The notes beneath the pieces are model-generated. The model saw nothing but the letters and a program-made list of their open reading frames with translations. It made no database searches and was not told where the DNA came from. 27,340 nucleotides of DNA, taken from IMG/VR virus record IMGVR_UViG_3300045988_034716, positions 1-27,340 of that record; one strand, 5' to 3'. Made by a program: the position numbers and the translations under genes. The DNA is from a virus. Each line of letters starts with the position of its first letter. Within the stretch, counting starts at the first letter, position 1. Shown piece after piece: positions 764-27,340 of the stretch.

Positions 764-1981
764 TCATCGCCACCGGAAGCACGACAGCTCCCGCAGCCCG
801 ACCGTCTGCACGAAGTAGCGCATTGCGTCGCAGGCGTGGTCATCCTCCTTGACAACCTCCTCTTGCCTCTTCTTGTCGTTCCAGCGGTACAGCCCGAGTT
901 CCGACAGCAGGCGCTCGCACTTGTGGCTTATCAGCAGGTCTCCCCGCTCCATCGCCGTCATGACGTTGCTGATTCCCTCTATGACGGCGTTGTCCGCCCC
1001 CCTGAAGTCCCAGTCGCCGTGACGGTGCATGCACTCCATGAACGACGACGAGGACGGGTCTATTACGACAAGCTCGACGTACTTCTTCGCCATGAACCTG
1101 CGCAGCGCCTCGTAGTGCTCCTCGTCCGTCCTGCGGTACCCATCTGCCTTCGAGTCGAAGCAGTACTCGTCCACTGCGTAGGCTTTGCCCCCCTTTACGA
1201 CCCAGTCGATTGCCACGAAGGGGTTTGTGATGCCGTAGTCGATTGAGACGTAGTGCGGGGACTTGCGCAGCTCGTCATCCGGAAGCTCGGCGCACATCGT
1301 TGACTCGCGGAAGTTCTGGTAGACAAGACCCTCCGCGAGAACCCAAAGGCCACGGATGAACCGGTCGTAGAACACGCCGGAGTACATCCTCTCGTATCTA
1401 GCTATCGTGTCATCGCTTAGCGTCGGGTTGTCCCTCATCGTGAACTTGAGCACGAGTATCCGCTTCTCCTCGGCCTTGTCGATGAAATCCCTCTTCACGA
1501 AGTGCGTAGGGTACGACGGGTTGCAGTTCCACCAGAACTTCGAGCCGTCCACCGAGCATCGGGCCATCGCCTGGTCTACGAACGAGCGCGGCATCAACGC
1601 CACCTCGTCCAGCAGGCACCCGGCTGCGGTCATGCCCTGGATGACGTCCTGCGACTGCTCAGAGCTTGCACCGAACAGCCAGTACGTGTTGGTGCCGACT
1701 TTTACGTACCCGTCCCCACGGTGGTAGTCATACGCCATGCCCATGGAACGGAGGATCCCGAGCATCGGGAGGACGACGTTCCTCGTGAGCGAGCCTATCG
1801 TCCTCCCAGCCACGATGAAGCTTCGGTGGGAGAACGTCCTCTGCGACCACAGGACGAACCCGACAATCATCGAGTGCGTCTTGCCCGAGCGCACCGAACC
1901 TTGCGCAATCACGCCGTCATACGGACAAGCGCCCGACCACCACGTGGCGAGGCGCTTTTGCTTGTCGCTGAACTCTATCAT
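764..1981 (-). CDS. terL: Terminase large subunit
   Basis: A 405-aa ORF with a Walker A-like motif (GSVRSGKTH) in the N-terminal ATPase region and an acidic nuclease-type C-terminal region. It lies between a TerS-like gene and the portal. Confidence 0.9.
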   Translation of the reverse strand: MIEFSDKQKRLATWWSGACPYDGVIAQGSVRSGKTHSMIVGFVLWSQRTFSHRSFIVAGRTIGSLTRNVVLPMLGILRSMGMAYDYHRGDGYVKVGTNTYWLFGASSEQSQDVIQGMTAAGCLLDEVALMPRSFVDQAMARCSVDGSKFWWNCNPSYPTHFVKRDFIDKAEEKRILVLKFTMRDNPTLSDDTIARYERMYSGVFYDRFIRGLWVLAEGLVYQNFRESTMCAELPDDELRKSPHYVSIDYGITNPFVAIDWVVKGGKAYAVDEYCFDSKADGYRRTDEEHYEALRRFMAKKYVELVVIDPSSSSFMECMHRHGDWDFRGADNAVIEGISNVMTAMERGDLLISHKCERLLSELGLYRWNDKKRQEEVVKEDDHACDAMRYFVQTVGLRELSCFRWR

Positions 1982-2454
1982 TCCGTCTTCCCGAGTCCGA
2001 GCGCGTCAATCCACTCCTTGATGCTCGTGTCCTGCTCCTCGCTGATTGCGACGTCCTGTCTGTCTCGCCACAGCTGCGGCTGACGGTTCTTCAGCCAGAA
2101 GATGCAGGCGGTGACGTCCGGCGCAAGCTCCCTCTCGGTCTCCTCTACCCTCTTCACCTGCGGTTGGCCATCGACAATCTCGATGACCTTCTTCGTCTCC
2201 CGCGACTTGCCGCCCATCGCCCGCTGGTACAGCGTTCGCTCTACGTCCATGTCAGCTATGTCGCGGCTCTCGTTTAGGGCGTTCGAAAACGCCTCGTCCT
2301 CCTTGGCCCACTTGTACAGCGTTGACTTCGCTACCCCGAACTCCCTCGCTATCTCCTCGGCAGTTGCGCCCCTCAGCGCCAGACCCCTCGCCCACGGGAT
2401 GTGGTACTTCGGATCGTACTTAGTCGGCCTTCCCGTCTTTGCCATGCGTATCAC
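1978..2454 (-). CDS. terS: Terminase small subunit. The true start is probably the ATG at 2445 (MAKTGRPTKYD...)
   Basis: N-terminal MAKTGRPTKY followed by an HTH-like segment (ATAEEIAREFGVAKSTLYKWAKE), about 155 aa, immediately upstream of TerL with a 4-nt overlap. Confidence 0.7.
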   Translation of the reverse strand: MIRMAKTGRPTKYDPKYHIPWARGLALRGATAEEIAREFGVAKSTLYKWAKEDEAFSNALNESRDIADMDVERTLYQRAMGGKSRETKKVIEIVDGQPQVKRVEETERELAPDVTACIFWLKNRQPQLWRDRQDVAISEEQDTSIKEWIDALGLGKTE

Positions 2455-2668
2455 CCATCATGTTCTCGAATATCTCCCACGGGCTGCTGATCTCCCCGGA
2501 CTTCATCTTGCGGTCTATGAGCGCCTTCACGCCCCTCGCCGTCGTCTCAGGTATCGCGGCCCTTCCGAACAGCTTCATGGTTGGAGTATACGCCCTGCCG
2601 TCGTACTCCCCGAACTCGCGCAGCGCCGCCCTCGCCATGGGCCGCGCTGCGGCCACGGCGTTCTTCAC
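2420..2668 (-). CDS. Hypothetical protein, 82 aa, non-ATG start. The frame is open up to about 2745
   Basis: Composition is balanced rather than Arg-rich. Its 3-prime end overlaps the TerS start. The exact start is uncertain (GTG at 2668 or ATG at 2641). Confidence 0.4.
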   Translation of the reverse strand: MKNAVAAARPMARAALREFGEYDGRAYTPTMKLFGRAAIPETTARGVKALIDRKMKSGEISSPWEIFENMMGDTHGKDGKAD

Positions 2669-2787
2669 GTCGCCGTGCTTCTTCGTTGCCTGAAGCGCCT
2701 TGACGAACGGCTCGAGCTCCTCCTCAGCAAGGACGGCCCCTTATCACGCTCATGGTCTCCATACCGGCGACGTTGCAGTGCTCTGGC

Positions 2788-3180
2788 CTAACCTCCTCCA
2801 TCGAGACGCCTCCACCCTTCCATCCCAAGAGCCTTCGAGTACTTCGTAGGCTCGTCGAGCAGGATGTACTCCCAGTGGCCTGCCTCTATCGTCGGCATCC
2901 CGTATCTGTAGCACGGCTGCTTGCTCTCGACCCACCTGAAGTGGAGCATGTTCTGGTGCGCGAGACCGTGGCATCCAGACGTGTTCCCTGAGCCGCACAG
3001 CGTTATTGTCGGCTTCTTGAGTTCCACGCCGTTGCGGTACATCTTGCCGGCGCTCCTGCGCACCACGTGATGCTGGTTCAGCGGCCACGTCGCGCCGCAT
3101 ACGGCGCACCTGCACATCTTCACTGACGGCTTCCCCATCATCGGCTGAAGCTCAAGCGCGAGCGTCGTCACCTTAGCCAC
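2788..3180 (-). CDS. HNH endonuclease, packaging-associated
   Basis: Cys/His HNH motif: CAVCG...NQHHVV...CHGLAH. It lies just upstream of terS/terL, as in cos-type siphoviruses. Confidence 0.85.
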   Translation of the reverse strand: MAKVTTLALELQPMMGKPSVKMCRCAVCGATWPLNQHHVVRRSAGKMYRNGVELKKPTITLCGSGNTSGCHGLAHQNMLHFRWVESKQPCYRYGMPTIEAGHWEYILLDEPTKYSKALGMEGWRRLDGGG

Positions 3181-3415: not shown

Positions 3416-3663
3416 CCTGAGACCTCCTGTAATCCGTTTTGCGGCCCGTTTGCCTCGCTTCCAGTGTGATTGTTCCTCTGTGCTGCAATCTGCCCTTGAG
3501 CCGCCTTAGAACGGGAACGGCAGCGTGCCGTGCTCCCATCCTCCGACGACGCCGAGCGCCGCGAAGAGCATCGATACCGCGATAATCGCCGCAGCCGTCT
3601 CGTGCTCCTCGGAGAACCGGTCGATTGACCACGACACCCTCCCGAGCCAGCGCAGCAGCGCGT

Positions 3664-3849
3664 CTACAACAGCTCCTGCGGCTTCTTTCGCAGCTCCTCG
3701 CACATCCGCTTGAATATGTCGGTACGAGGCTCCCTGCGCCCGTTGACGATGTTGCTCATCTGCCCGTACGAGCACCCGACCTTCCGCGCCAGCTCGTTCT
3801 GCGACATATCGCGCTCTGCCAGCGCGTCCCTCAGTGCCTGCGTGTTCAT
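3664..3849 (-). CDS. XRE-family HTH transcriptional regulator (Cro/CI-like), 61 aa
   Basis: HTH signature: MSQNELARKVGCSYGQMSNIVNGRREP. RBS AGGAGAAAtga precedes ATG. Confidence 0.8.
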   Translation of the reverse strand: MNTQALRDALAERDMSQNELARKVGCSYGQMSNIVNGRREPRTDIFKRMCEELRKKPQELL

Positions 3850-3895
3850 TCATTTCTCCTTCGTCCTTCCTGCCTTGGTGTTTACTGATGTGAAC

Positions 3896-3924
3896 ATCAT
3901 ATAACATCCGCTCACGTTTGTAAA
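3896..3924 (-). promoter_or_regulatory. Sigma70-like promoter TTTACA-17-TATGAT, upstream of the XRE gene
   Basis: On the minus strand: TTTACAaacgtgagcggatgttaTATGAT. It sits in a locally AT-rich 70-bp island between the DnaC-like gene and the XRE gene. It has the same -10 hexamer as P1-P3. Confidence 0.5.
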
Positions 3925-3926
3925 TA

Positions 3927-4712
3927 TCATTCCAAGCCAAGGTCCCTCCTCATCGCCTCGTACCTCTCCGCCGTCGCACGCTTCCTGCCGGTGTTGAACT
4001 CGACCGGTAGGCACACCTCTAGGATGCGGTTGTACGTCCTCCTCGCCGTTATGTCGGGCGTCTTGTACAGCTCCGTGCGCGTGAGGTTGGTGCTCACCAC
4101 CATCGGCATCCTCTGCCGGTACCTCCCGTCCACGACCGCGTAGACGAACTCCTGCGCATAGCTCGTGCTCCTCTCGGCACCGAGGTCGTCGAGTATCAGC
4201 AGGTCGCACGACAGCAGGCTCCTGAGCTGCTGCTCGTCGTCGAGGTTCCGCGCGATGATGAGCTGGGGAACCGACCTCATCACGACCCGCTTTCCGCCCT
4301 CTATGAGCCTGTTCGCAATGCAGCAGCTCGCGAAGGTCTTTCCCCCGTCCGGTTCCCCGAACATGAGCAGTCCGTAGTCTGCCCCGGCTGCGCACCTCTC
4401 GGCGTACCTGCGGCACACTTCCATCTGATCCTTCCCGTACCTGCCGTCGTCTGCCTCGAACGTGCACTCGCGCATCTCCGCCGACGAGAACGCGGTTCTT
4501 AGCAGCCTCTCGGTGCGAGCCTTGCGCTCGCGCTCCTCCGACTCCCTCTCCTCGCGCTCCCTCGCCTCCTCCTGGCACCTGCAAAGGCACGGCATGAGCT
4601 TTCCCTCTGCCATGACCGCCCTCGGGGTGTGGCAGTCTGGGCACATTGGGATGCCGTTCTCGACCGACAGCCCGTCCCACATGCGGTTCGATATGCTGAA
4701 TCCAAAGTCCAT
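3927..4712 (-). CDS. DnaC/IstB-like AAA+ helicase loader with an N-terminal Cys cluster
   Basis: Walker A GEPDGGKTFASCCIANRL. Walker B LLILDDLGAE. N-terminal CPDCH...CLCRC. RBS GGGGGAtagc precedes ATG. It lies directly downstream of the replisome organizer. Confidence 0.85.
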   Translation of the reverse strand: MDFGFSISNRMWDGLSVENGIPMCPDCHTPRAVMAEGKLMPCLCRCQEEAREREERESEERERKARTERLLRTAFSSAEMRECTFEADDGRYGKDQMEVCRRYAERCAAGADYGLLMFGEPDGGKTFASCCIANRLIEGGKRVVMRSVPQLIIARNLDDEQQLRSLLSCDLLILDDLGAERSTSYAQEFVYAVVDGRYRQRMPMVVSTNLTRTELYKTPDITARRTYNRILEVCLPVEFNTGRKRATAERYEAMRRDLGLE

Positions 4713-4722
4713 GCTATCCCCC

Positions 4723-5433
4723 CTAGAACGGGCAGTCGGCCATGTCTACGACAGGCGACTCGTTCACATACGCCTCGAACTTCGATGCTCGGAACAGCGT
4801 CTCCGGTCTTAGGTACGAACGCATCCTCGGGTCTTTCGACCACTGCGCGACCTTGCAGTCTATGACTGCGATGCAGTCGCTCACCGAGTACCCGTCCCTC
4901 AGCCTCGCCGCAATCGGCTTGCGCGTCGAGTCCTTCCTCGGGTTGAACCTCTTCCCCGTCAGCTCGTTGAGGTGCGCCGTTACCTCGTCCACGCCCTCCT
5001 GGATGCCGTCTTGGGGGGCTTTAGGGGGTTCTATATGGCTAGTCATCTGGTAGTCATCTGGTATAGGTTCGCCATGTGGGGCAATTTGATTTGCCCTCAC
5101 GGGCAAATGGATGTTCCCGTTACGGCAAATGCGCACCCCCTCGTCCGTGAGCGTGTACCACTTCGTCCTGTCGTATGCCGCGTCGTTGTACACACCGGCC
5201 TCGACGAGTCCCGAGTCCTCTAGCCTCTTGAGCGCCGAGCGTATCTGCTTCTCCGTCATGTACGGGAACTGCTCGGAGAAAGCCTTCACGCTGTTGTACG
5301 TCCAGAACCTCCCGTCGCGCTCGTTCTGGCTGTTCGTCGCGTTCTTCTCGACCCAGTACTCTATGTTCTTGAACAGCACCGCCGCGTTGACGCCCACCAG
5401 CTTCGCGACTTCCGAGTCGAATGCGTTAATCAT
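4723..5433 (-). CDS. Phage replisome organizer (DnaD-like N-terminal domain plus conserved phage C-terminal domain). The start is re-assigned to ATG 5431-5433
   Basis: N-terminal MINAFDSEVAKLVGVNAAVLFKNIEYW... C-terminal LNELTGKRFNPRKDSTRKPIAARLRDGYSVSDCIAVIDCKVAQWSKDPRMRSYLRPETLFRASKFEAYVNE, the conserved phage replication-protein C-terminus. RBS GGAGGAGAC precedes ATG. The longer track ORF start at 5526 would read through an upstream terminator hairpin. Confidence 0.85.
   Translation of the reverse strand: MINAFDSEVAKLVGVNAAVLFKNIEYWVEKNATNSQNERDGRFWTYNSVKAFSEQFPYMTEKQIRSALKRLEDSGLVEAGVYNDAAYDRTKWYTLTDEGVRICRNGNIHLPVRANQIAPHGEPIPDDYQMTSHIEPPKAPQDGIQEGVDEVTAHLNELTGKRFNPRKDSTRKPIAARLRDGYSVSDCIAVIDCKVAQWSKDPRMRSYLRPETLFRASKFEAYVNESPVVDMADCPF
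5036..5132 (+). repeat. Ori-like iteron element, copy A, inside the replisome-organizer linker
   Basis: AGTCATCTGGT AGTCATCTGGT ATAGGT...GATTTGCC...GGGCAAATG...CCCGT..GGCAAATG. About 80% identical to the element at 21128..21226. It encodes the inter-domain linker (..IPDDYQMTSHI..). Confidence 0.6.
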
Positions 5434-5440
5434 GTCTCCT

Positions 5441-5492
5441 CCAAAAGAAAGACCCCGCATGGCGGAGGTAACGGCTCCACCCTGCGGGGTTC
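5441..5492 (-). terminator. Rho-independent terminator on the minus strand: ACCCCGCA stem, U-tract TTTCTTTTGG
   Basis: On the minus strand: accccgcagggtggagccgttacctccgccatgcggggtc followed by tttcttttgg. It lies between the nuclease gene and the replisome-organizer RBS. Confidence 0.6.
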
Positions 5493-5543
5493 TTCGTGAC
5501 TCAAGTCTACCAAATGCCGTTACCATCCGATAGTCTCATCCTA

Positions 5544-6413
5544 TCATTTTGCTCCGAAGAGTTCGCGGTAGTGTGCGCAGAACTCGCAGGCCGCGCAGTA
5601 GTCGCGGCACTTCGGGTCGTCTCCCGGTCGGTGCTCGACGTAGAACTTCTCGCCCTCGCTCTCAGCCCTCTCGTTCGCCTCCTCCTCTGAGTCGTAGAGC
5701 TTGACCGCCGACTTGCGGCCCTCCTTCATCACCGCCCACTTGTCTGCCTTGTGCCAGCGCTCCTCCTCGGAGCACATCGGCAGCTCCTCGTCTGGCATCG
5801 ACTCCGCGAGCTTTATCTCCTCGAAGCGACCGCGCAGCCACTCGCCGCACTCCGCTATCTCGCTCTCGCTGAAGTCCCATCCGATGCGGTACACGGGATG
5901 CTGCGGATACGTATGGTCCGCCTTCGCCTTCGTCTTCGAGTGGTCTTTCAGCATTGCCACGATCTCGCCGCGCTTGGCGTCGAATCCTATCTGGCGCAGC
6001 ATCCACACGTAGCATAGCGTCTGGCGCTTCCAGTCGTCGAACTCGCCGAACACGACCTTCCACGCCGTGGCTGTCTTGTAGTCGGTCACGGTGCCCGTCG
6101 AATCGTCGTACAGGTCGAATATGCCGGAAAGCTCGTACCCGTCTCCCATATCGACGCTGAACCAATTCTCCTTGAGCTGGTCTGCCGTCTCCTGCGAGTT
6201 CTCAAGTATGCTGTGGACGGCTGTCCCGAATATCGCCCATACCATGTCAGACGCGTCCTGCTCGATTTCTGAGTCGTGTCGGCGCTGAAGGATGCTCTCG
6301 CGCACCCCCTTCATCACCGCGGTCACGCTGTAGCGCTTTGACGTGTACTTATGGTCGCTCGTCGCCGCGTCTACAAAAGGCGCTGGCAGGTTCATCTCGT
6401 TCGTGATAATCAC
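5544..6413 (-). CDS. PD-(D/E)xK nuclease, Cas4/RecB-like, with a C-terminal Cys cluster. GTG start at 6411-6413
   Basis: Nuclease motifs IFDLYDD, TDYKT (the DYKT hallmark) and a Q-x3-Y motif (QTLCY). C-terminal CRDYCAACEFC. RBS GGAGG 7 nt before GTG. The GTG overlaps the RusA stop codon as GTGA. Confidence 0.7.
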   Translation of the reverse strand: MIITNEMNLPAPFVDAATSDHKYTSKRYSVTAVMKGVRESILQRRHDSEIEQDASDMVWAIFGTAVHSILENSQETADQLKENWFSVDMGDGYELSGIFDLYDDSTGTVTDYKTATAWKVVFGEFDDWKRQTLCYVWMLRQIGFDAKRGEIVAMLKDHSKTKAKADHTYPQHPVYRIGWDFSESEIAECGEWLRGRFEEIKLAESMPDEELPMCSEEERWHKADKWAVMKEGRKSAVKLYDSEEEANERAESEGEKFYVEHRPGDDPKCRDYCAACEFCAHYRELFGAK

Positions 6414-6814
6414 TCGTCTACCTCCACTATCTCGACTGTCATGTACTCCGCTGTCCTCGTCCTCGGGTTCTTTCTGACCACAAGGCAAACGACCTGCGTG
6501 TCATCGTGCCACGCGACACCGTTAAGTGCGTCGAGTACGCTCTTCGCAACGTTGTCTGCGTCCGGCTTGTGCGTGTCAGGCTCGCTCTGGACTCGCTTCG
6601 GCGTGCTCTTCGGAAGCTCTCTGTACGTCTGAACCGTAACCATGAGCGGCCCGTCGTGCGTCTCTCCGCACTGCCTTCGGTACTCGTCAGCTATCAGCCT
6701 CTCGTACCTCTTGCCCTCCGGAGGCTGGTACGCCTGGGCGTGCCCCGCCACGACTCTGAACCTCGGGCGGGGCTTGCCGTGAACCTTGCCGACGACGATC
6801 AACCTACTCCTCAT
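6410..6814 (-). CDS. rusA: RusA Holliday-junction resolvase
   Basis: A 134-aa ORF with GKPRPRF and KPDADNVAKSVLDALNGVAWHDD motifs. Confidence 0.85.
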   Translation of the reverse strand: MRSRLIVVGKVHGKPRPRFRVVAGHAQAYQPPEGKRYERLIADEYRRQCGETHDGPLMVTVQTYRELPKSTPKRVQSEPDTHKPDADNVAKSVLDALNGVAWHDDTQVVCLVVRKNPRTRTAEYMTVEIVEVDE

Positions 6815-7214
6815 CGTCCTGCTCGGACTTCATGAGGCTGTCGATGGCCCTCTTCTTCTCGGACTCGTACACCGAACGAAGCTCTGCTTTGCACAGAAAC
6901 ACGAATTGCTCGTAGCTCATGAAGCTCGGCACCTTCTCAATCCTGCGCTTGAGCCAGTCCTCGAAACTCTCGGCAACGACTGCCCCGCCCTTGCGCTCTA
7001 CCCGCACGTCCTTCCAGTAATCGAGCGAGTCTGCGGCGAGCTTCTCGCGGCCAACCTGTAGGATTCGTGCTTTGATGCCCTCGAACGGGTCTTTCTCGGC
7101 TCTCACTGTGGCCGATTCGACCATGCATGCCCTCATCTTCGCGTTCTCGGCCTTAAGACGTGATATGCGGTCGTAAGCCTCAAGCACGCCCATCACCATG
7201 TCGTTGCGTTCCAT
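6804..7214 (-). CDS. Hypothetical protein, 137 aa, first gene of the P1 unit. Start re-assigned to MERNDMV
   Basis: The track ORF start at 7298 lies inside promoter P1. ATG 7212-7214 is preceded by the conserved leader GAAAGGCAGGAcagg that also precedes the first gene downstream of P2 and P3. Confidence 0.55.
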   Translation of the reverse strand: MERNDMVMGVLEAYDRISRLKAENAKMRACMVESATVRAEKDPFEGIKARILQVGREKLAADSLDYWKDVRVERKGGAVVAESFEDWLKRRIEKVPSFMSYEQFVFLCKAELRSVYESEKKRAIDSLMKSEQDDEE

Positions 7215-7278
7215 CCTGTCCTGCCTTTCCGCCCTTCCGGGCTTCTCGTTTCCGGGGATTCCGTTTCCCCTTGACTTA

Positions 7279-7307
7279 ATCATAGCACAATCGTTCATCG
7301 TTGTGAA
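7279..7307 (-). promoter_or_regulatory. Promoter P1: TTCACA-17-TGcTATGAT (minus strand), conserved module copy 1
   Basis: On the minus strand: TTCACAacgatgaacgattgtgcTATGAT. Near-identical copies occur at 8979..9007 and 25194..25222. Confidence 0.65.
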
Positions 7308-7316
7308 TAGTAATTA

Positions 7317-7345
7317 CGAGAAAACGGCGGGCTTGCAACCCGCCT
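7317..7345 (-). terminator. Rho-independent terminator: GGCGGG ttgcaag CCCGCC then GTTTTCTCG
   Basis: A hairpin followed by a U-tract on the minus strand, directly after the stop of the 7352..7603 gene and directly before P1. Confidence 0.6.
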
Positions 7346-7351
7346 TACGCG

Positions 7352-7603
7352 CTAATCGACAGTCGCAAGAGCCTCGCCGGTCTCGCGGTCTACGAGGCTC
7401 GTTCCGTGAATCTTGCCGATTGCGTCGTCGGGCGGATGCTCGGCCTGCCCACGATGCACGTCGAGCACGACAAGCTCGCCCACCGCCTTCGCAAGCTCTG
7501 GCATCATGCCGATGTCCTCCGGGTCAAGCTCGAACTGCATGACCGTCTTTCCTGTCTTGACGTTCATCGCGACGAAAGCCGACTTCACCGTCATGTCCTG
7601 CAT
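7352..7603 (-). CDS. Hypothetical protein, 83 aa. Start re-assigned to MQDMTVK
   Basis: RBS GAGGAtacgaag precedes ATG, immediately after the SSB stop. The longer track ORF overlaps SSB by 104 nt and has an Arg/Thr-rich N-terminus. Confidence 0.55.
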   Translation of the reverse strand: MQDMTVKSAFVAMNVKTGKTVMQFELDPEDIGMMPELAKAVGELVVLDVHRGQAEHPPDDAIGKIHGTSLVDRETGEALATVD

Positions 7604-7616
7604 CTTCGTATCCTCT

Positions 7617-8018
7617 CTAGAACGGGATGTCCTCGTCGTACATCCCTGCGTCTTCCTGCTGCCCGTCGTATGCGTTCTGCCCGCTTCTCTGGCCTGCGCC
7701 CTGGAAGTGGATGTTGTCAACGACCACTTCCACCTTGCTGCGCTTCTGTCCGTCCTTCTCCCATCGGTTCTGGTGCAAGCGCCCTGTCACTGCGACGTAC
7801 GTGCCCTTCGACAGGTAGCCGCTGACGGACTCCGCACGCTTGCCGAACAGCGTCATGTCGATGTAGTTCGGATAGTCCTCCCACTCACCGTTGCCGTCCT
7901 TCCGGCTCTCGTTGACGGCCACCGACATGCTCAGGACTGCCGTCCCGCCCTGCGTGTAGCGAAGCTCCGGGCCTCTCGTGAGGTTCCCGCCGAGCGTCAC
8001 GCTGTTCAATCCGTTCAT
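7617..8018 (-). CDS. ssb: Single-stranded DNA-binding protein
   Basis: OB-fold N-terminus (NSVTLGGNLTRGPELRYT...), a Gly/Gln-rich tail and an acidic C-terminal tip ...DEDIPF. RBS AAGGAG. Confidence 0.95.
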   Translation of the reverse strand: MNGLNSVTLGGNLTRGPELRYTQGGTAVLSMSVAVNESRKDGNGEWEDYPNYIDMTLFGKRAESVSGYLSKGTYVAVTGRLHQNRWEKDGQKRSKVEVVVDNIHFQGAGQRSGQNAYDGQQEDAGMYDEDIPF

Positions 8019-8027
8019 CTGCTCTCC

Positions 8028-8735
8028 TTAGCTCTTAGCAATCCATCCTGCCAGTATCTCCGATGCGCGTACGGTCTGCGCCTCGTTGTACTCGAGCGCA
8101 CCCTCGGTCACACCGAGCTGCTGCATTCCCTTCGTCTTGTTGAGCGCGGCAATCACCTCGTCTATCTGACGGCCCTTCATCTCTGCGAACTTCGCCAGGT
8201 TCACTAGGAAGTCGTCCCCTGATGCCTGCGTTTGCTTCTGTGGTGCCGTTTTACGGGCAGTTTGCGCCTTCTTTGGTGTAGTTGTTCCTCCTCCGCGACT
8301 CCGCGTCTTAGAATCGCTTACAGAGCCTCGGTTGTCCATGCCGTCCACCTCCTCGCCGGAGTCGATGGCGAACAGGCCGCACATCGCGTACTTTCGCGCG
8401 TACGAGCTTGCGAGACCAGAAATCTGAGCATCGTCCATGCCCTTCTTCTCGTCCTCCTCGCGTGCGTACGCGGTCGATGAGATCTCGCCATCGCACCCGT
8501 TCGCCCAGAATGTAGCGGTCGCCTTCGTGTAGAAGCGCTCCCCGATGAGCATCACCTCGTCGCTCAGGAAGTACCCGCAGTCGTACGTGTCGCACAGCGG
8601 CTTGAGCGCTGCGTTGATGCTCTCAAGGTTGCGGAACGCGTACTTGCCGAAGCTGTTGTACTGGTCTTTCGGTACGTGAAGCTCGTTCTGCACATGCGAT
8701 AGCACAGAGCGAAGCTCCCTTTCCTTCTCAGCCAT
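8028..8735 (-). CDS. erf: ERF-family single-strand annealing protein
   Basis: KYAFRNLESINAALKPL...GERFYTKATATF...AQISGLASSYARKYAMCGLFAI resembles the ERF core. It lies directly upstream of ssb. Confidence 0.7.
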   Translation of the reverse strand: MAEKERELRSVLSHVQNELHVPKDQYNSFGKYAFRNLESINAALKPLCDTYDCGYFLSDEVMLIGERFYTKATATFWANGCDGEISSTAYAREEDEKKGMDDAQISGLASSYARKYAMCGLFAIDSGEEVDGMDNRGSVSDSKTRSRGGGTTTPKKAQTARKTAPQKQTQASGDDFLVNLAKFAEMKGRQIDEVIAALNKTKGMQQLGVTEGALEYNEAQTVRASEILAGWIAKS

Positions 8736-8930
8736 CTAAGACTCCATCCTCATGTTGTGAGACACCTCGAACGCGGCAAGCTCGTAAGCCTCTGACTTGC
8801 AGCGAAGGTACATCTCCTCGGTCGTGTCTCCGTTCTTCTCTGCACGGTAGGCATCGTTCGCGAACTTGTCTGAAAGCCTCGCGAAGTAGTCCGCCATCTC
8901 GTCTACCGTCCTGTATCTGCCGCTCTCCAT
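8736..8930 (-). CDS. Hypothetical protein, 65 aa, first gene of the P2 unit. Start re-assigned to MESGRYR
   Basis: ATG preceded by the conserved leader GAAAGGCAGGAagac. The track ORF start at 9053 lies upstream of P2 and of the lysis terminator. Confidence 0.5.
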   Translation of the reverse strand: MESGRYRTVDEMADYFARLSDKFANDAYRAEKNGDTTEEMYLRCKSEAYELAAFEVSHNMRMES

Positions 8931-8978
8931 GTCTTCCTGCCTTTCTTCTATTGGCGAACCTTTTTCTCCTATAAGCAC

Positions 8979-9007
8979 ATCATAGCATAAGCGTTCATCT
9001 TTGTGAA
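8979..9007 (-). promoter_or_regulatory. Promoter P2: TTCACA-17-TGcTATGAT, conserved module copy 2
   Basis: On the minus strand: TTCACAaagatgaacgcttatgcTATGAT. Confidence 0.65.
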
Positions 9008-9014
9008 TAGTGTA

Positions 9015-9050
9015 CGCAAAAATATGGGGGGGCGCTTTCACACCCCCCCA
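9015..9050 (-). terminator. Rho-independent terminator: G7 / C7 stem then ATATTTTTG
   Basis: On the minus strand: gggggggtgtgaaagcgccccccc followed by atatttttgcg. It is 7 nt downstream of the endolysin stop. Confidence 0.6.
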
Positions 9051-16336: not shown

Positions 16337-18705
16337 CAGAACGCTCCCATCGCCTCTGACAGCGCGTTCCTGTGCAGGATTGCCGCCGCGCTGTACAGGT
16401 CGTCGTCAGACCTGACCACCTTCGTCTCGAAATGCTGCTCGACCTTCGGGGGCTGCTGCCCCTTGTCGCTCACGAACCCGAACACGGCACCCTGCTGCTT
16501 GAAATCCATCTGCACTCCGTCGATTCCGAGCTTGACGTCCTTCCTGAGCGAGCCGAACGGGTCTTCCCTGTCCCATCCGAGGGATACGCCTATTGCAGCG
16601 CCACGGCCCATGTTCACGCCGATGAGGTCGCGCATGAGAGTGGACGGAGAATGGATGCCAAGAAAGTTCTTCACTGAGTCTATTGCGGAGTTCACCCCAC
16701 CCATGATCGCGTTGAGGATTTCGCCTCCGGCGTTGCGGATGCCATTCGCGATTCCCTCCACGATGTTCGAGCCTACGGATACGACCTGTCCGGGGATTGA
16801 CGCCAGGCCGCTTATGAGGTTGCTCGCGAACTCCGACGCTGCGCTGATTGCGTTTGACGCCATCTGCCCGACGAACGACGCGACGTTGCCGATTACAGAG
16901 CCTAGGAACCCTGCGATCCTTCCGGGCACAGACCCTATGAAGCTCACGATGCTGTTCAGGAACCCGGAACCCGCGGATGCGGCACCGCTCACAACGGAGC
17001 CGACGAACGACGCGACGTTCGACACGACCGAACCGAGGAACCCGGCTATGTTGCCCGGAAGCGACGCGAACCACCCAATGAGCGCCTGGATTGCCCCGGG
17101 GACGGTGACCGTGAAGAACTCGACAATCGCGCCCCATACGGCTGCTGCTGCGGACGAGATTGCGTCCCATGCCGCTGTTACGGCGTTCCTGAAGTCCTCG
17201 TTCGTCGCCCATAGGGCGACGAGAGCCGCAACGAGCGCCCCTATCGCGATTACGACAATCATCATCGGGTTCATGCTCATCACGAAGTTTAGAGCGGCCT
17301 GGGCGAGGGACATCGTCTCAGTCGCTCCCGCCGCAACCGTCTGCGCGGTCGTGAACGCCGTTATCGCTGCGCTGATGCCCTGAACCATCCCACTTATCGT
17401 CGTGTACGCCTGCCATGCGGCGAACCCACCCGCCACGGCAGCGAGAACCGGAATCAGGATGCTGCAGTTGTCGGCGCACCACCCGAGCGCGTCAGCCGCT
17501 CCCTGAATCACCGTCGAGACAATCGGCCCGACCATTGACGAAAGCGTCCCGAACGCCGACACAACGCCGCCTATAGCCCCCTGAACCTGCGATGCGTCGA
17601 TTGTCGGTATGTTGATGCCGAGCTGCGCGAACACCGCCGTAGCTGCGTTCCACGCACCTGCAAGAGCCTCGGACAGAACCGGTGCGAGCTTCTCCTGAAT
17701 ACCGGCAAGAGCACCAGGGAGCGCGTTCACGATTCCCTCGCCGATTCGCTGGACGGCGGGTGCCACGTTCGTCGCGACGTCTCCCAGAGCTGTCATGAGG
17801 TTGTCAATCAGCGCCGTCATGTCTGCGTCGGGCGATCCTATGCCTGCGGCAAGGTTCTCCCACGCGGCCTTTACCTCATTGATGGAACCCTCGATTGTCG
17901 TGGCTCCCTCTCGCGCGGTAGTACCGGCGATGCCCTGCTTCTCCTGGACAAGCTCGATTGCCGTAACGATGTCCGAGAACGAGTCGATAGACAAGTCTGC
18001 CGCCTGACCGTTCGCCGCTGCGTACGCGTTGGCGTCGTCGATGAGGCGCTGCATCTCCTCCTTGGTGCCTCCGTAGCCGAGCTTGAGATTGTCGAGCATC
18101 GTGTAGTTCTGCTTGGCGAAGCCCTGGAACGCGTTCTGCACGTCGGTCATGTTGCTTCCGAACGTGTTCACGTTGTCGGACATCGCACGCATCGCAACGT
18201 CGGTCTGCTGCGCGGCCTTGACGGTGTCACCGCCGAGCGAGTTTATGAGCGCCGCGCTGAAGCTCGTCGCCTGCTCCATGTACTGGTTCGCCGACATTCC
18301 TGCCGTCTGCCATGCCTTCGACGCGTTCTCCGACATGAGCGCAATAGCCGGGTTCAGGCTGTTGTACTCGTCCCTGACCTCCGCGACGGCCTTGCCCTGC
18401 TCCTGAGCGTATGCGACAAGCGTCTGCCCGCTGCCGTACAGCTTCGCGACGCCGCCCGACAGCTGCTCGTAGTTCGAGTAGGCGCTGAGCGCCATTCCTC
18501 CGAACGCGAGCGCGGCCGAACCTACCGCAGCGAACGCCGCGGCACCTGCCTTCGCCACGGTCGAGAACACCGACGTCCCTTTGGACTCTACCTCAGAGAA
18601 CGACGAACCGGCCTTCTCGGCTGCGTCCTTGCCCGCCGCGTCTGCCTGCGCCCCAAGCCCGGAGCCGTCAAGCTCCATGCCAATCTTGATTGTTCCGTCT
18701 GCCAT
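16336..18705 (-). CDS. Tape measure protein, about 789 aa. Start at MADGTIKIG
   Basis: Ala/Gly-rich and largely helical, with a central hydrophobic segment. It carries tandem repeats of about 50 aa (..IAGFLGSV..NVASFVG..) encoded at roughly 16770..17064. RBS GAGAGGTGG. Confidence 0.9.
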   Translation of the reverse strand: MADGTIKIGMELDGSGLGAQADAAGKDAAEKAGSSFSEVESKGTSVFSTVAKAGAAAFAAVGSAALAFGGMALSAYSNYEQLSGGVAKLYGSGQTLVAYAQEQGKAVAEVRDEYNSLNPAIALMSENASKAWQTAGMSANQYMEQATSFSAALINSLGGDTVKAAQQTDVAMRAMSDNVNTFGSNMTDVQNAFQGFAKQNYTMLDNLKLGYGGTKEEMQRLIDDANAYAAANGQAADLSIDSFSDIVTAIELVQEKQGIAGTTAREGATTIEGSINEVKAAWENLAAGIGSPDADMTALIDNLMTALGDVATNVAPAVQRIGEGIVNALPGALAGIQEKLAPVLSEALAGAWNAATAVFAQLGINIPTIDASQVQGAIGGVVSAFGTLSSMVGPIVSTVIQGAADALGWCADNCSILIPVLAAVAGGFAAWQAYTTISGMVQGISAAITAFTTAQTVAAGATETMSLAQAALNFVMSMNPMMIVVIAIGALVAALVALWATNEDFRNAVTAAWDAISSAAAAVWGAIVEFFTVTVPGAIQALIGWFASLPGNIAGFLGSVVSNVASFVGSVVSGAASAGSGFLNSIVSFIGSVPGRIAGFLGSVIGNVASFVGQMASNAISAASEFASNLISGLASIPGQVVSVGSNIVEGIANGIRNAGGEILNAIMGGVNSAIDSVKNFLGIHSPSTLMRDLIGVNMGRGAAIGVSLGWDREDPFGSLRKDVKLGIDGVQMDFKQQGAVFGFVSDKGQQPPKVEQHFETKVVRSDDDLYSAAAILHRNALSEAMGAF

Positions 18706-20768: not shown

Positions 20769-21098
20769 CTATCGCTTCAGGTAGTCCGTTGCCGCCTGAG
20801 CAAGCTCGCCGACGTGCGCAGCAGAGTACGCGTCCGCCCAGTGCGCCGTCGCCAGCGCGTGCCTCTCGTGCGAGAACTTCAGGCCGTCCCCGTAGTACAT
20901 CATCCTCGCGTACGGAGTGCTGTAGCTCACCTCGAACGGGGTCGCGGTTGCCGAGGCGTCGAGGAACCCGTTGCGCATCGGGACGTACGGCGACATCCCT
21001 CTCATCGCCTCGGTCGCGAGGAACAGCCCGAGTCCGTCGTTCTTCGGTATCGCGTCGAGCTTGCGATGCACTCCCTCGAACTCAAGCGTCGACTTCAT
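20769..21098 (-). CDS. Head-tail joining / minor capsid family protein, 109 aa
   Basis: Position in the head-completion cluster. RBS AAGGGTGG. Confidence 0.4.
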   Translation of the reverse strand: MKSTLEFEGVHRKLDAIPKNDGLGLFLATEAMRGMSPYVPMRNGFLDASATATPFEVSYSTPYARMMYYGDGLKFSHERHALATAHWADAYSAAHVGELAQAATDYLKR

Positions 21099-21127
21099 GT
21101 CACCACCCTTTTCCCTTTAGCTTTTCT

Positions 21128-21226
21128 ATCTGGATAGTCATCTGGTAGTCATCTGGTATAGGTCGGCCATTGTTGTCAAATCGATTTGCCATCTAGGGCA
21201 AATGAGATTTACCCGTCGGGCAATGG
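21128..21226 (+). repeat. Ori-like iteron element, copy B, intergenic
   Basis: ATCTGG at AGTCATCTGGT AGTCATCTGGT ATAGGT..GCCAT..GATTTGCCatctagGGCAAATG..CCCGTcGGGCAATGG. It is a direct-orientation copy of 5036..5132. Confidence 0.6.
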
Positions 21227-21688
21227 CTATGCGCCTTCCAGATGCAGCACGTTCGCGTACTTGAGCATCCCCGCGCCGCCTTCCACCCCGCCGTTGTTCG
21301 ACAGGTCGCGGAACGCGTGAACCTCGAACCCACGGTGCAGCGTCAGCTCTGCGAGAATCTGCCTCTTCGTAGGCTCTCCGGACAGCGCGGTCTCTCCGAG
21401 CATCACGTAGTCTCCTGTTGATGCCGTGAGCGCGTCGCTCGGCCTCGTCTTGCAGAACTCCGCGTACGGGACGTATCGCATCGTGGATGACGGAACCTGC
21501 ACGACGCAGCTCTTCGCCGTCAACGCGACCCCTTGCGCATCCGTGGTGCGCGAAACCCTCTCGCTCCACATCGCCGGTCTGAGCACGCGCACCGCGTAGA
21601 CGTCGTTGTCCAGCCCTGCGTCCTTGGCGCCGATGCGGTTGAACACGGTCACTGTCTGGTCGAGAACCTTGTCGATGTCGATGTTCAT
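21227..21688 (-). CDS. Head completion / head-closure-like protein, 153 aa
   Basis: Position downstream of the connector gene, with a 1-nt gap. Confidence 0.35.
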   Translation of the reverse strand: MNIDIDKVLDQTVTVFNRIGAKDAGLDNDVYAVRVLRPAMWSERVSRTTDAQGVALTAKSCVVQVPSSTMRYVPYAEFCKTRPSDALTASTGDYVMLGETALSGEPTKRQILAELTLHRGFEVHAFRDLSNNGGVEGGAGMLKYANVLHLEGA

Positions 21689-23682: not shown

Positions 23683-23772
23683 TGCACTCTCCGTCCTAGG
23701 ATGTTGTTGAACCGCACTCCATGCGGTGGGGACGGTCGCACTCAAGCGTGCGCCGCTATGAACGATTGTACG

Positions 23773-23801
23773 ACAAAAAGAAGCCCGCGACTAGGCGGGC
23801 T
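23773..23801 (-). terminator. Rho-independent terminator: AGCCCGC ctagtc GCGGGCT then TCTTTTTGTCG
   Basis: On the minus strand, downstream of the 23857..24228 gene. It ends the P3 unit. Confidence 0.6.
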
Positions 23802-23856
23802 GGTTGGTTCCGTTGCTATGCAGTCGGGCCGTACGCTCGATCGTGCTTCCTTGTGG

Positions 23857-24228
23857 CTATGCCCCGTCGATGCCGAGAATCCTCGCGTCAGCCACATCGT
23901 CCTCTACCTGTCCGTACGGCTTCCCTGACATCTTCGCGAGCCTCTCTATGGCTCTCTCGTAGCGGTCGTAGTCCTCGCTCTCGTAGAATCGGTTGGCGAC
24001 CATCAGGCCGCGCTCGTACTTCGACATGCCCTCGCAGTCTCTGTCAACGAGGTCGTAGTCCATAATTTCCGCATCGCTCAGCGGCTCATCGTAGTACACC
24101 CTTCCCCATACGTTCCTGCCGAAATCAGGGTCGAGGAACAGACCGTCGTACATGATGACCTTGCATCCGTCCTTCACCGGGTAGCACCCGATTGACGGCG
24201 GTCTCAGCTTGCATCCGTAGCAGTGCAT
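23857..24228 (-). CDS. Hypothetical protein with an N-terminal Cys cluster (MHCYGCK..C..C), 123 aa
   Basis: RBS AGGAGGcgcagtg precedes ATG. Translationally coupled to the upstream gene by a TGATG overlap. Confidence 0.55.
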   Translation of the reverse strand: MHCYGCKLRPPSIGCYPVKDGCKVIMYDGLFLDPDFGRNVWGRVYYDEPLSDAEIMDYDLVDRDCEGMSKYERGLMVANRFYESEDYDRYERAIERLAKMSGKPYGQVEDDVADARILGIDGA

Positions 24229-24506
24229 CACTGCGCCTCCTTGTACTCGTACTCGAACTCCTCGGTGTCCCCGTTCGAGTAGACCGCCTTTCGTAGCAGG
24301 CTCCCAATCTTGTAGTCATCCTCGAACGTGACCCTGATTCGCTCGCCGTTCACGTACTTCCTGAACACGATTCCAGACGCCTTCTTGCGCATCTGGTTCG
24401 GCGTGTAGAAGCTCCTTACCGGCTTCTCGCCCTTGCCGTTGTGCCAGCAGACGACCCTCTTGCACGCGTCCAGGCCGTCGAGGTCATCGCATCCGTATCC
24501 CATCAT
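24228..24506 (-). CDS. Hypothetical protein, 92 aa. Start at MMGYGCDDLDGLDACKRVVCWHNG
   Basis: ATGATG overlaps the TGA of the upstream 48-codon gene. The track's 144-aa version has an Arg-rich artefactual N-terminus. Confidence 0.5.
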   Translation of the reverse strand: MMGYGCDDLDGLDACKRVVCWHNGKGEKPVRSFYTPNQMRKKASGIVFRKYVNGERIRVTFEDDYKIGSLLRKAVYSNGDTEEFEYEYKEAQ

Positions 24507-24649
24507 CTGTCTTCCTTCCTCACGAACCCGCTTGCCTTCACCTTGCTGCCTTCGAGCACCTGACGCTCTGGCTCCTCCACCTCTTCGAGCGTCCCGTAGC
24601 AGCGGCATATGCACGTCCCGTCCTCGTGCCTCGCGTACCCGTAGCACAT
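24503..24649 (-). CDS. Small Cys-rich protein, 48 aa (MCYGYARHEDGTCICRCYGT...). Not in the ORF track because it is under 60 aa
   Basis: Strong RBS GAGGAGGAGcg precedes ATG. Its stop overlaps the next start. It is paralogous at the N-terminus to the two downstream genes. Confidence 0.5.
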   Translation of the reverse strand: MCYGYARHEDGTCICRCYGTLEEVEEPERQVLEGSKVKASGFVRKEDR

Positions 24650-24658
24650 CGCTCCTCC

Positions 24659-24865
24659 TCACATCATCGTATCGTCGTTGACGGTTGCAGCTTCCCTAAT
24701 CGCGTACGGTTCGTTGCCAGCACAGGCTACAGCCCTGCACAGCTTCCACTGCGTTACACCGCCGTTCATCGCGGTTGACATTGCCTGCATCAGCGCTGCC
24801 GTGTCGTTCACTGCCTGTATCGTCTTTTCGAACTTTCCTTCGACGTAGAACCCGTATCCGCTCAT
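24659..24865 (-). CDS. Hypothetical protein, 68 aa. Start at MSGYGFYVEGK
   Basis: ATG preceded by GGAAAGGCAGGAAGc, a fourth copy of the conserved SD-region sequence. Confidence 0.45.
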   Translation of the reverse strand: MSGYGFYVEGKFEKTIQAVNDTAALMQAMSTAMNGGVTQWKLCRAVACAGNEPYAIREAATVNDDTMM

Positions 24866-24916
24866 GCTTCCTGCCTTTCCTGTCGATTCCGTCAAAGCCG
24901 CTGTGGCTCAACGCTT

Positions 24917-25151
24917 CCTATGCAACGTATGCCACGTACCTTTTGTTCTTGGTGTCCCTCCTGAAGCAAACGGCCGCCTCTCCGCAGTCCGTATCTACCA
25001 CGAGATGCCTTTCGTTCATGACTGACACCTTCATGCCCCTTTCCACCATCTGCCGGTAGAGGACTTCCACAAGCTCGGCGACCCTTGCTCCGCTGCTGGT
25101 GTTCTCTGCGAACTCCTTTGCGAACTCGATTGCGTCGTTCTTGGTTTACAT
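24917..25151 (-). pseudogene. First ORF of the P3 unit. ATG at the conserved position, then an in-frame TAA as codon 2, then 76 open codons (TKNDAIEFAKEF...KRYVAYVA)
   Basis: The leader GAAAGGCAGGAC-ATG aligns the second ATG (25149-25151) with the start codons downstream of P1 and P2. Codon 2 is TAA where those copies have GAA/GAG. The downstream frame is open to TAG at 24917. Confidence 0.4.
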
Positions 25152-25193
25152 CATGTCCTGCCTTTCTTGTGGTTGTTGTTATTTGTTGATGTA

Positions 25194-25222
25194 ATCATAG
25201 CATATGTGTTCACCTGTGTGAA
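25194..25222 (-). promoter_or_regulatory. Promoter P3: TTCACA-17-TGcTATGAT, conserved module copy 3
   Basis: On the minus strand: TTCACAcaggtgaacacatatgcTATGAT. Confidence 0.65.
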
Positions 25223-25231
25223 TGGTTTACT

Positions 25232-25262
25232 CAAGAAAAAGCGGGGATTTTTTCTCCCCGCC
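25232..25262 (-). terminator. Rho-independent terminator: GCGGGGA gaaaaaa TCCCCGC then TTTTTCTTG
   Basis: On the minus strand, downstream of the 25278..25496 gene and immediately upstream of P3. Confidence 0.65.
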
Positions 25263-25277
25263 GTTGCTTGCCACTCT

Positions 25278-25496
25278 CTATATTTCGTACACGACTCGGT
25301 TCCCGTCCTTCACCTTGCCGGCCACGCGGACGCCGTGCTCCGTCTCGTACGACGTGCATTCGTTCAGGCACCTTGCTATGAAAGACGCTCGTCCCATGCC
25401 GTCCGACATCTTGTCCATGTTGGCCTCGGTCTCGCCTGAGTCCAACGTGACCACAACGTTGCCGTCAGAGTCCTTCCCCCTGAAGTGATATGCCAT
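25278..25496 (-). CDS. Hypothetical protein, 72 aa
   Basis: The ORF follows the Mu-F-like gene. No motif was recognised. Confidence 0.45.
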   Translation of the reverse strand: MAYHFRGKDSDGNVVVTLDSGETEANMDKMSDGMGRASFIARCLNECTSYETEHGVRVAGKVKDGNRVVYEI

Positions 25497-25499
25497 CTC

Positions 25500-26615: not shown

Positions 26616-27285
26616 TTACAGCTCCTGGAACACGGGCACGGACGGCTTCGCGGCCGCGATCTCTGCCACCCTCTGACGAGCAACCTCCGGACTCTCGCCC
26701 ATCACCATCATCCGGTAGTCCACGGCGTCTGTGGCACCGATGGCGTTTCCTGCGAGTATCGCGCTCTGCTGGTCTGCGAACGTGTTGATGTACTCGTCGC
26801 TCCACTTGTACTCGACGTCGTACGGGCCGACCGGGACGATTCCGTAATAGCTCGCCAGAACGTCCCACGCGTACACCATGTCGTCTAGGTAGCTCTCGGC
26901 CACGCCTCGCGCCGTCTCGATGAAGCTCTGCGTCTTCACTGTGGCCTTGCGCACGTTGTCCACGTTCTGGTAGCTCGCCTCGTTCAGGTTGCTCAGGATG
27001 CCGGAGCTTACGCCGACCGCCTTCTCGACCTCCTGATACTGCTTCTCCAACGCGTCCACGTACGGCTGCAATTGGATTGTCGGTGCCCATTCCGATATGA
27101 GATTGCCGTTTCCGCGCAAGTCCCCCCGTACGTCCATGAAGAGCCGTTCACGTCCCTTCGGCATCGTGAGCTTGGATGCCACGATGTCCCCGTTCTGGTC
27201 GCGCCTGAACTCCTTCGAGAACATCGACTTGTCGGCAATGATCGCCTTCTCGCTCAGCCCGAACTCGTTGTGCATCTGGTTCGTA
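26616..27285 (-). CDS. Portal protein, C-terminal part. Continuation of 1..728 across the circular junction
   Basis: The frame is continuous with the N-terminal part. The C-terminal region ...ILAGNAIGATDAVDYRMMVMGESPEVARQRVAEIAAAKPSVP is typical of SPP1-type portals. Confidence 0.75.
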
Positions 27286-27340
27286 AGATAGTGAATCTCC
27301 CTGATTGGCGCTGACGCACCGAAGCAGATTGGTGTTCCCT
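27286..27340. repeat. Terminal direct repeat; exact copy of 1..55
   Basis: 55/55 identity with the window start. Confidence 0.9.

Follow-up and report, generated by a model that had tools for sequence, protein, structure and literature searches.

A candidate replication-origin module inside the initiator gene of a gut siphovirus and its second, matching copy in the late operon

The stretch of DNA analysed here (the window) is the complete IMG/VR virus record IMGVR_UViG_3300045988_034716, 27,340 nucleotides (nt) long. Bases 1-55 are identical to bases 27286-27340, and because its ends coincide in this way, we take the contig to be a circular assembly of a complete genome of 27,285 base pairs (bp). 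The same contig is held at ENA under ERZ28575241, as CHAT13-1 scaffold_1646. The genome is that of a siphovirus, with a guanine-plus-cytosine (G+C) content of about 60% and essentially all of its genes on the minus strand. Our subject is a repeat-rich element within the gene for its replisome organizer, hereafter the initiator (4723..5433, minus strand; 236 amino acids): copy A of this element (5013..5132, minus strand) covers initiator codons 101-141 and is a repeat of a second block, copy B (21108..21227, minus strand), located in the late operon. As we argue below, the element is probably a replication-origin module of the SPP1 G38P or lambda O type, present twice in the genome.

Read in the sense of the gene, the block consists of two to three 20-bp palindromic units with a 22-bp period, followed by GAACCTATACCAGAT (5056-5070), which is near-invariant across the family, and then by 11-bp repeats, of which two read ACCAGATGACT and a third is degenerate. 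In copy A the palindrome array occupies 5067..5130, with a perfect central unit at 5089-5108, ATTTGCCC-TCAC-GGGCAAAT, between degenerate units at 5067-5086 and 5111-5130; on the basis of sequence, these three units are the presumed binding sites of the initiator. The 11-bp-period repeats (5029..5072, minus strand), presumably an unwinding or helicase-loading segment, comprise two perfect units at 5040-5050 and 5051-5061 (tandem TAGTCATCTGG at 5040-5061) with degenerate units on either side. A preliminary description of this DNA had pointed to two perfect 11-bp direct repeats and to three GGCAAAT boxes, one of them inverted, and both features hold: the repeats, given there in the register AGTCATCTGGT, lie at 5041-5062 in that register, and the boxes lie at 5089-5095 (the inverted one, on the minus strand), 5102-5108 and 5124-5130, where they prove to be half-sites of 20-bp palindromes of the form ATTTGCCC-N4-GGGCAAAT recurring every 22 bp. 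The 11-mer has four exact occurrences in the window, all of them in tandem pairs, one pair at 5040 and the other at 21135; GGCAAAT has five sites in 27 kilobases (kb), with 1.47 expected, and all five fall within the two 100-nt blocks; and the palindrome pattern, allowing up to three mismatches, matches only in the two blocks (0.02 expected). A chance origin of the repeats is excluded.

Translation of the initiator begins at the ATG at 5433, the start at 5526 reported by the open reading frame (ORF) tool being an upstream extension. The protein combines a winged-helix N-domain, a disordered linker and a Phg_2220_C C-domain. The last of these matches Pfam PF09524 (Phg_2220_C) over amino acids 153-224 with an expectation value (E) of 6e-26 and 90.7 bits against a cut-off of 27, and the protein also matches TIGR02220 (71 bits against a cut-off of 66.65); in a BLASTP comparison, the C-domain shares 41% identity over 82 amino acids with SPP1 G38P (E 5e-14), and the initiator shares 41% identity over 76 amino acids with ORF20 of 80alpha. 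The label 'DnaD-like replisome organizer', used in the preliminary description, is thus apt in that the C-domain is homologous to G38P, whose gene 38 carries 'DnaD-like' as its RefSeq product name, but the matching Pfam family is Phg_2220_C and not the DnaD domain. Apart from PF09524, the Pfam scan of the initiator returned only weak PadR/HxlR matches, with neither Phage_rep_O nor RepA_N among them. An AlphaFold model built on 53 homologues shows a confident winged-helix domain for residues 1-106, a predicted disordered linker for residues 107-139 (predicted local distance difference test score, pLDDT, <50) and a helical C-domain for residues 142-223; copy A therefore coincides with the predicted linker, where the preliminary description had placed it. 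By structure comparison, the fold of the N-domain weakly resembles those of DNA-bound PadR and RepA_N initiator N-domains. Many homologues align only to residues 1-126 and then carry other C-domains, which argues that the N-domain and the repeats are inherited as one unit. The initiator is best explained as a member of the G38P family with a different DNA-binding domain.

Copy B fills a 128-nt intergenic gap (21099-21226) in the same orientation as copy A and is non-coding. Its perfect 11-bp repeats lie at 21135-21145 and 21146-21156, with a degenerate unit at 21124-21134 (the set spanning 21124..21156, minus strand), and its palindromic units extend over 21166..21223, including ATTTGCCATCTAGGGCAAAT at 21184-21203. 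Aligned with each other, 5029-5132 and 21124-21227 are identical at 83 of 104 nt on the same strand (E 3e-21), and the similarity reaches to about 5013; the second copy that the preliminary description had placed elsewhere in the genome is thus found. Upstream, the TAG stop of a phrog_3366 gene (21227..21688, minus strand), itself adjoining the head-tail adaptor gene, abuts the element; downstream, the ATG of a phrog_556 gene (20769..21098, minus strand) borders the gap. Both flanking genes belong to the head-tail connector region of the late operon.

Comparison with relatives indicates what the DNA of copy A, as distinct from the protein, has been required to preserve. Between the window and the homologue L003, whose initiator is 65% identical at the protein level, identical amino acids share a codon in 17 of 19 cases inside the element and in 56 of 128 outside it (Fisher p 1.4e-4), while amino-acid identity is 0.49 inside and 0.69 outside. 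The genome prefers GAG, GAC, AAC and CAG at a level of at least 90% each, and the linker contains a run of rare codons, GAA-CCT-ATA-CCA-GAT (genome-wide shares of these minor codons: GAA 10%, CCT 10%, ATA 27%, CCA 13%, GAT 10%), together with TTG, AAT, CAA and ACT. Moreover, the repeat periods of 11 and 22 nt are not multiples of three and so run out of frame. We extended the comparison to about 75 homologous loci from many phyla, in genomes of 30-60% G+C. At these loci, a lag of 22 nt beats lags of 21, 23 and 24 almost everywhere, two to three ACCANWT repeats follow the palindromes at spacings of 11, 12 or 24 nt, and CATTTG is read in all three frames (16, 11 and 3 cases); GAACCTATACCA is identical in 30 of 36 distinct homologous linkers. 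The repeats accompany this initiator N-domain at all of the loci, whatever the neighbouring genes. The preliminary description had suggested DNA conservation beyond coding needs and had held that absence of the repeats from the homologous genes of relatives would speak against an origin; the synonymous identity, the rare codons and the three-frame motifs bear out the former, and the repeats are kept. On these comparisons, the DNA of copy A is itself under selection. In L004 (1292-1467), the central palindrome has a 6-nt spacer of A6, versus T6 in L002, L003 and L005, with a corresponding protein change from FL to KK. This A6/T6 change is a loop inversion of a potential cruciform, the footprint of hairpin-mediated template switching.

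Relatives in IMG/VR carry both copies at corresponding positions, and the slot syntenic with copy B is filled in L082, L083, L084 and L086. In the lineage of the window and L001, the half-sites of both copies are of the TTTGCC (GCC) type and the 11-bp repeats of both copies are ACCAGATGA; in the lineage of L002 and L004, where both copies lie on one contig, the half-sites of both copies have changed in concert to the TTTGAC (GAC) type, and the 11-bp repeats of both read ACCAWATGA. The two copies therefore change together between lineages. The slot is also occupied in syntenic phages with other initiators. Phages of the L129 type have an HTH_36 initiator N-domain and an initiator gene without repeats, and their slot holds TTGGTAG/CTACCAA palindromes together with about 100 nt of DNA rich in adenine plus thymine (A+T); a 6-mer search of about 26 kb found no second copy in these genomes, leaving the slot as the only repeat cluster. 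In phages of the L159/L174 type, the initiator is unrelated, and the linker and the slot share repeats on one contig in direct orientation (E 5e-12), here a TGCAAGC-type repeat and a TAGTT array. Over four lineages, then, both copies vary in step with the type of initiator, and the four repeat types seen match three types of initiator N-domain. We note in passing that the slot of the lineage containing L159 (9141-9409) and L161 (9634-9956) is 270-320 nt long, with seven CTGCAAGCA repeats at an 11-nt period and a microsatellite-like TAGTT/TAGGT array of about ten units, and that the in-gene copy (L160, 1180-1310) translates this array as SLVEVSLGEVSLGEVSRG, the initiator in question being without a match in Pfam.

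The genes surrounding the initiator are those of a replication and recombination region. Directly downstream lies a gene for a DnaC/IstB-like AAA+ helicase loader (3927..4712, minus strand; PF01695; NF005992 with E 4e-60; weaker matches to DnaC and DnaI models), and in the same operon is a gene for a 61-amino-acid XRE/HTH_3 (helix-turn-helix) protein (3664..3849, minus strand) that is 80-93% conserved in relatives. A 144-amino-acid ORF at 3506..3940 was considered as a gene and discarded as spurious because its frame contains stop codons in relatives, the real gene being that of the 61-amino-acid protein. Upstream of the initiator gene, four genes form a recombination toolkit (5544..8735, minus strand) of a PD-(D/E)XK nuclease (5544-6488), a RusA resolvase (6410-6814), an SSB (a protein that binds single-stranded DNA; 7617-8018) and an ERF annealing protein (8028-8735), all on the minus strand. 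In its functions this set equals the one with which SPP1 restarts replication once the fork has stalled at oriR (PMC6316719). Immediately upstream of the initiator ATG is a gap of 110 nt that contains an inverted repeat (5447-5495) with 21-nt arms that are 81% complementary, a 7-nt loop and a T-run after it on the minus strand; this structure is terminator-like or attenuator-like and could gate expression of the initiator.

In our view it is very probable that each of the two blocks acts in cis as a site that is matched to the initiator and has been selected at the level of DNA, and likely that both function as origin-type elements. We propose that they work as follows. Dimers of the winged-helix N-domain would bind the 20-bp palindromes and would align on one face of the DNA, because the palindromes lie 22 bp, or two helical turns, apart. 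The resulting nucleoprotein complex may destabilise the adjoining segment of 11-bp repeats, and the PF09524 C-domain would recruit the DnaC-like loader encoded by the adjacent gene, together with the host replicative helicase. Copy A would be accommodated in the coding sequence of the disordered linker, where the protein can presumably tolerate what the DNA dictates. Copy B would be read by the same initiator; it may serve as a further origin, or it may be an initiator-bound block at which forks stall, the role proposed for oriR of SPP1; under the fork-block model, the ERF protein, SSB, RusA and nuclease of the phage would convert theta (circle-to-circle) replication into sigma (concatemer-producing) replication.

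The physical properties of the element are consistent with such a role in part. The 11-bp-repeat segment is 57% A+T in copy A and 63% in copy B (genome, 40%), and when the 50-bp windows of the genome are ranked by duplex instability, the copy B segment comes fourth (z 4.1) and the copy A segment sixth (z 3.5). Several observations nevertheless weigh against reading the element as an origin. It is A+T-rich only in relative terms, with no extended run of A+T comparable to those of SPP1 or lambda, and three other regions, at about 25150, 8950 and 3880, are equally or more unstable. The cumulative GC skew declines monotonically, neither copy A nor copy B marking an inflection; such a course is to be expected when every gene is on one strand and is therefore uninformative. 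Some of the conservation of ACCAGAT coincides with that of a peptide, EPIPD. For this type of initiator, co-variation rests on two lineages, and the copies of L001 and L083 lie on separate contigs of one sample. Finally, no second copy is present in HD29phi, Ld25A and H6/1, three cultured phages that share the N-domain; because these have the in-gene copy only, the second copy is a feature of this clade and not of the initiator family.

We also considered other explanations. The sites might be bound by the initiator and yet serve as regulatory sites or roadblocks, with initiation elsewhere: copy A would then autoregulate the initiator and loader genes, and copy B would act as a barrier to transcription or replication or as a handcuffing partner. 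The location of copy B inside a co-directional late operon and the equal instability of other regions of the genome fit such a role, and SPP1 oriR has itself been proposed as a fork barrier bound by gp38 (PMC6316719, PMC3485210), such that for copy B alone this explanation overlaps the one we favour. We nonetheless regard it as unlikely, since in characterised relatives the in-gene organizer repeats are the origin, and since the L129-type slot is the only repeat cluster in the roughly 26 kb covered and has a long A+T-rich stretch, in keeping with a sole origin. It is much less probable that the palindromes are operators through which some other phage DNA-binding protein controls transcription. 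The 61-amino-acid XRE-type protein, the one other evident DNA binder encoded nearby, would be the obvious candidate, as small HTH_3 proteins bind palindromes as dimers and its gene lies in the same operon, but its HTH region is essentially identical in the window and L002 lineages even though their half-sites are not the same; the N-domain of the initiator, by contrast, has changed between the two lineages, helix 61-74 included. In addition, the repeats are always found with this initiator N-domain among any neighbours, and no sigma-70-type promoter was found at either copy.

Explanations in which the element acts through its RNA or its protein product, or merely through its own mobility, fare no better. 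A constraint at the protein level or a low-complexity linker, duplicated by chance or through recombination, might account for the conserved EPIPD peptide and for the domain swaps that occur right after the element, as might a small mobile element that inserted at two places. Such an account is slightly less probable still than operators: copy B is non-coding, the periods run out of frame, the motifs are read in three frames, and the linker retains rare codons and frozen synonymous sites; as for mobility, neither terminal inverted repeats nor target duplications were seen at either copy, both copies are orthologously placed in relatives, and the element is kept in frame at 65% protein identity. 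Least probable of all is that the inverted repeats act as structured messenger RNA, whether for attenuation, processing or termination. In the sense direction, the RNA of copy A does fold significantly more stably than shuffled sequences (z -3.07), and one compensatory change between lineages falls in its central hairpin, but that of copy B, at z -1.35, does not reach significance, and Rfam covariance models gave no match at gathering score in the whole window. Furthermore, the same half-site returns at a constant interval of 22 bp, the 11-bp direct repeats lack complementarity, and genomes of 30-60% G+C have preserved the periodicity, in keeping with sites phased along the helix of duplex DNA.

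Returning to the origin-module interpretation, a tentative extension of it, which we hold to be plausible but do not quite favour, concerns the late-operon slot. For a whole clade of gut siphoviruses with genomes of 27-33 kb, binding of the initiator at this slot may be both ancestral and obligatory, the slot being re-tuned at each exchange of the DNA-binding module and acting as the primary origin or as a programmed switch of replication mode, with the in-gene copy travelling along with the initiator module. If that is true, the two-site oriL/oriR design, known only from SPP1, would be a selected and recurrent architecture, and there would be a comparative handle on the function of oriR. The element itself is not surprising, because origins inside initiator genes are textbook knowledge (lambda, SPP1, TP901-1), and the design is already known; what the analysis adds is a DNA module common to the family, along with evidence that an initiator-matched second site persists through exchanges of the initiator. 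For an uncultured group of gut phages, this pins down the likely origin or origins and the pairing of initiator with site. More broadly, a widespread winged-helix initiator N-domain always travels with a DNA module of 22-bp-phased palindromes and ACCAGAT repeats, including the near-invariant stretch between them, and a second late-operon site, matched to the initiator, is kept through initiator swaps, lending comparative support to the view that a second site of the SPP1 oriR type is functional rather than accidental. The GCC and GAC half-sites additionally offer natural specificity variants for binding work.

A number of further features of the genome deserve brief mention. The other least stable, lowest-G+C stretches are 25141-25240 (z 4.8), within an odd 1.7-kb region of small ORFs (23746-25499) in the head module, 8925-9025 (z 4.3), at the start of the early operon, and 3844-3944 (z 3.9); these are likely promoter or regulatory regions and would be the alternative places for an origin should the model proposed here fail. 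An HNH endonuclease gene (2788-3180) lies directly upstream of terS (1978-2454) and terL (764-1981), an order typical of cos-type packaging, and a packaging role for the repeat element was rejected, as the terS and HNH genes (1978-3180) are far from both copies. The portal gene spans the junction of the circle, with its C-terminal part at 26616-27275. Within the tape-measure gene, the two copies of a 66-nt direct repeat (16868-16933 and 17000-17065) lie 132 nt apart and are 73% identical; they probably reflect the usual internal repetition of a tape-measure protein. Scanning of the ORFs detected neither an integrase nor a repressor among them. A search for near-identical phage records found none, only short tape-measure matches, and a prophage and host search of GTDB genomes found no host, returning only distant homologues of the N-domain. 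Among the cultured phages, Lactobacillus phage Ld25A (L184, 23795-24973) encodes the homologous N-domain in a short ORF of its own (23795-24136), which stops immediately behind the WY motif, lacks the repeat block and is followed by a separate 'DNA replication protein' ORF; its initiator is either split or decayed.

It remains to place the element among known systems. In lambda, the origin lies within the O gene, where the sequence encodes the linker that joins the DNA-binding N-domain to the C-domain recruiting the loader; its binding sites are phased and dyad-symmetric, and a less stable segment comes after them. PMC5499656 cites this case. The element described here matches lambda in its position within the initiator gene, in phased dyad sites and in the less stable segment, but lambda has a single origin and there is no sequence homology (no Phage_rep_O match in Pfam); lambda O is the mechanistic archetype rather than a homologue, and the initiator here is not a member of its family. 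RepA_N plasmids likewise have their iterons within repA itself, in the coding sequence that separates the two domains. The DNA-bound N-domains of their initiators (RepA of pSK41 and pTZ2162; PDB 4pql, 4pt7 and 5kbj) have a fold resembling that of the initiator N-domain, but the match is weak (E 3e-3 to 7e-3; TM, or template-modelling, score 0.53), Pfam gives no RepA_N match, and the replicon here is a phage.

Further parallels are found in the organizers of two lactococcal phages, TP901-1 (ORF13) and Tuc2009 (Rep2009), and of Staphylococcus phage 80alpha (ORF20). The organizers of TP901-1 and Tuc2009 bind repeats within their own genes, and these repeats serve as the origin (PMC8965321), as proposed here for copy A; TP901-1 ORF13 was considered as a homologue of the initiator and rejected, being not detectably homologous. 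For 80alpha, the origin has been inferred to lie inside ORF20 (PMC5499656), and its record annotates a putative origin there, with palindromic repeats followed by short-period A+T-rich repeats; as in the window, ORF20 has a PF09524 C-domain and is followed by a gene for a DnaC-like loader. All three phages differ from the window in their N-domains and repeat sequences, and no second copy has been reported for them. The Bacillus phage SPP1 is the one system with both sites: oriL lies inside gene 38, oriR lies in a non-coding gap interrupting the late genes, and gp38 binds both (PMC6316719); after a stall at oriR, gp44, gp34.1, gp35 and gp36 are proposed to restart replication in rolling-circle mode (PMC6316719, PMC3485210). 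The N-terminal DNA-binding domain and the repeat sequences of SPP1 are unrelated to those described here, with short direct repeats and a long A+T tract in place of 22-bp-phased palindromes and 11-bp repeats; the SPP1 loader is G39P, whereas that of the window is of the DnaC/IstB AAA+ type and there is no phage helicase; the second SPP1 site follows gene 7 instead of lying between head-tail connector genes; and the genome here is 27 kb at 60% G+C. What the two phages have in common is a homologous PF09524 C-domain, a functional toolkit of annealing protein, SSB, RusA-type resolvase and exonuclease, one repeat block inside the initiator gene just before the C-domain, and a second block in a non-coding gap of the late region in direct orientation, the two blocks being 78% identical over 95 nt in the SPP1 record and 80% identical over 104 nt here. 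The parallel with SPP1 oriL drawn in the preliminary description thus extends to both sites, as oriL and oriR share the geometry of copies A and B.

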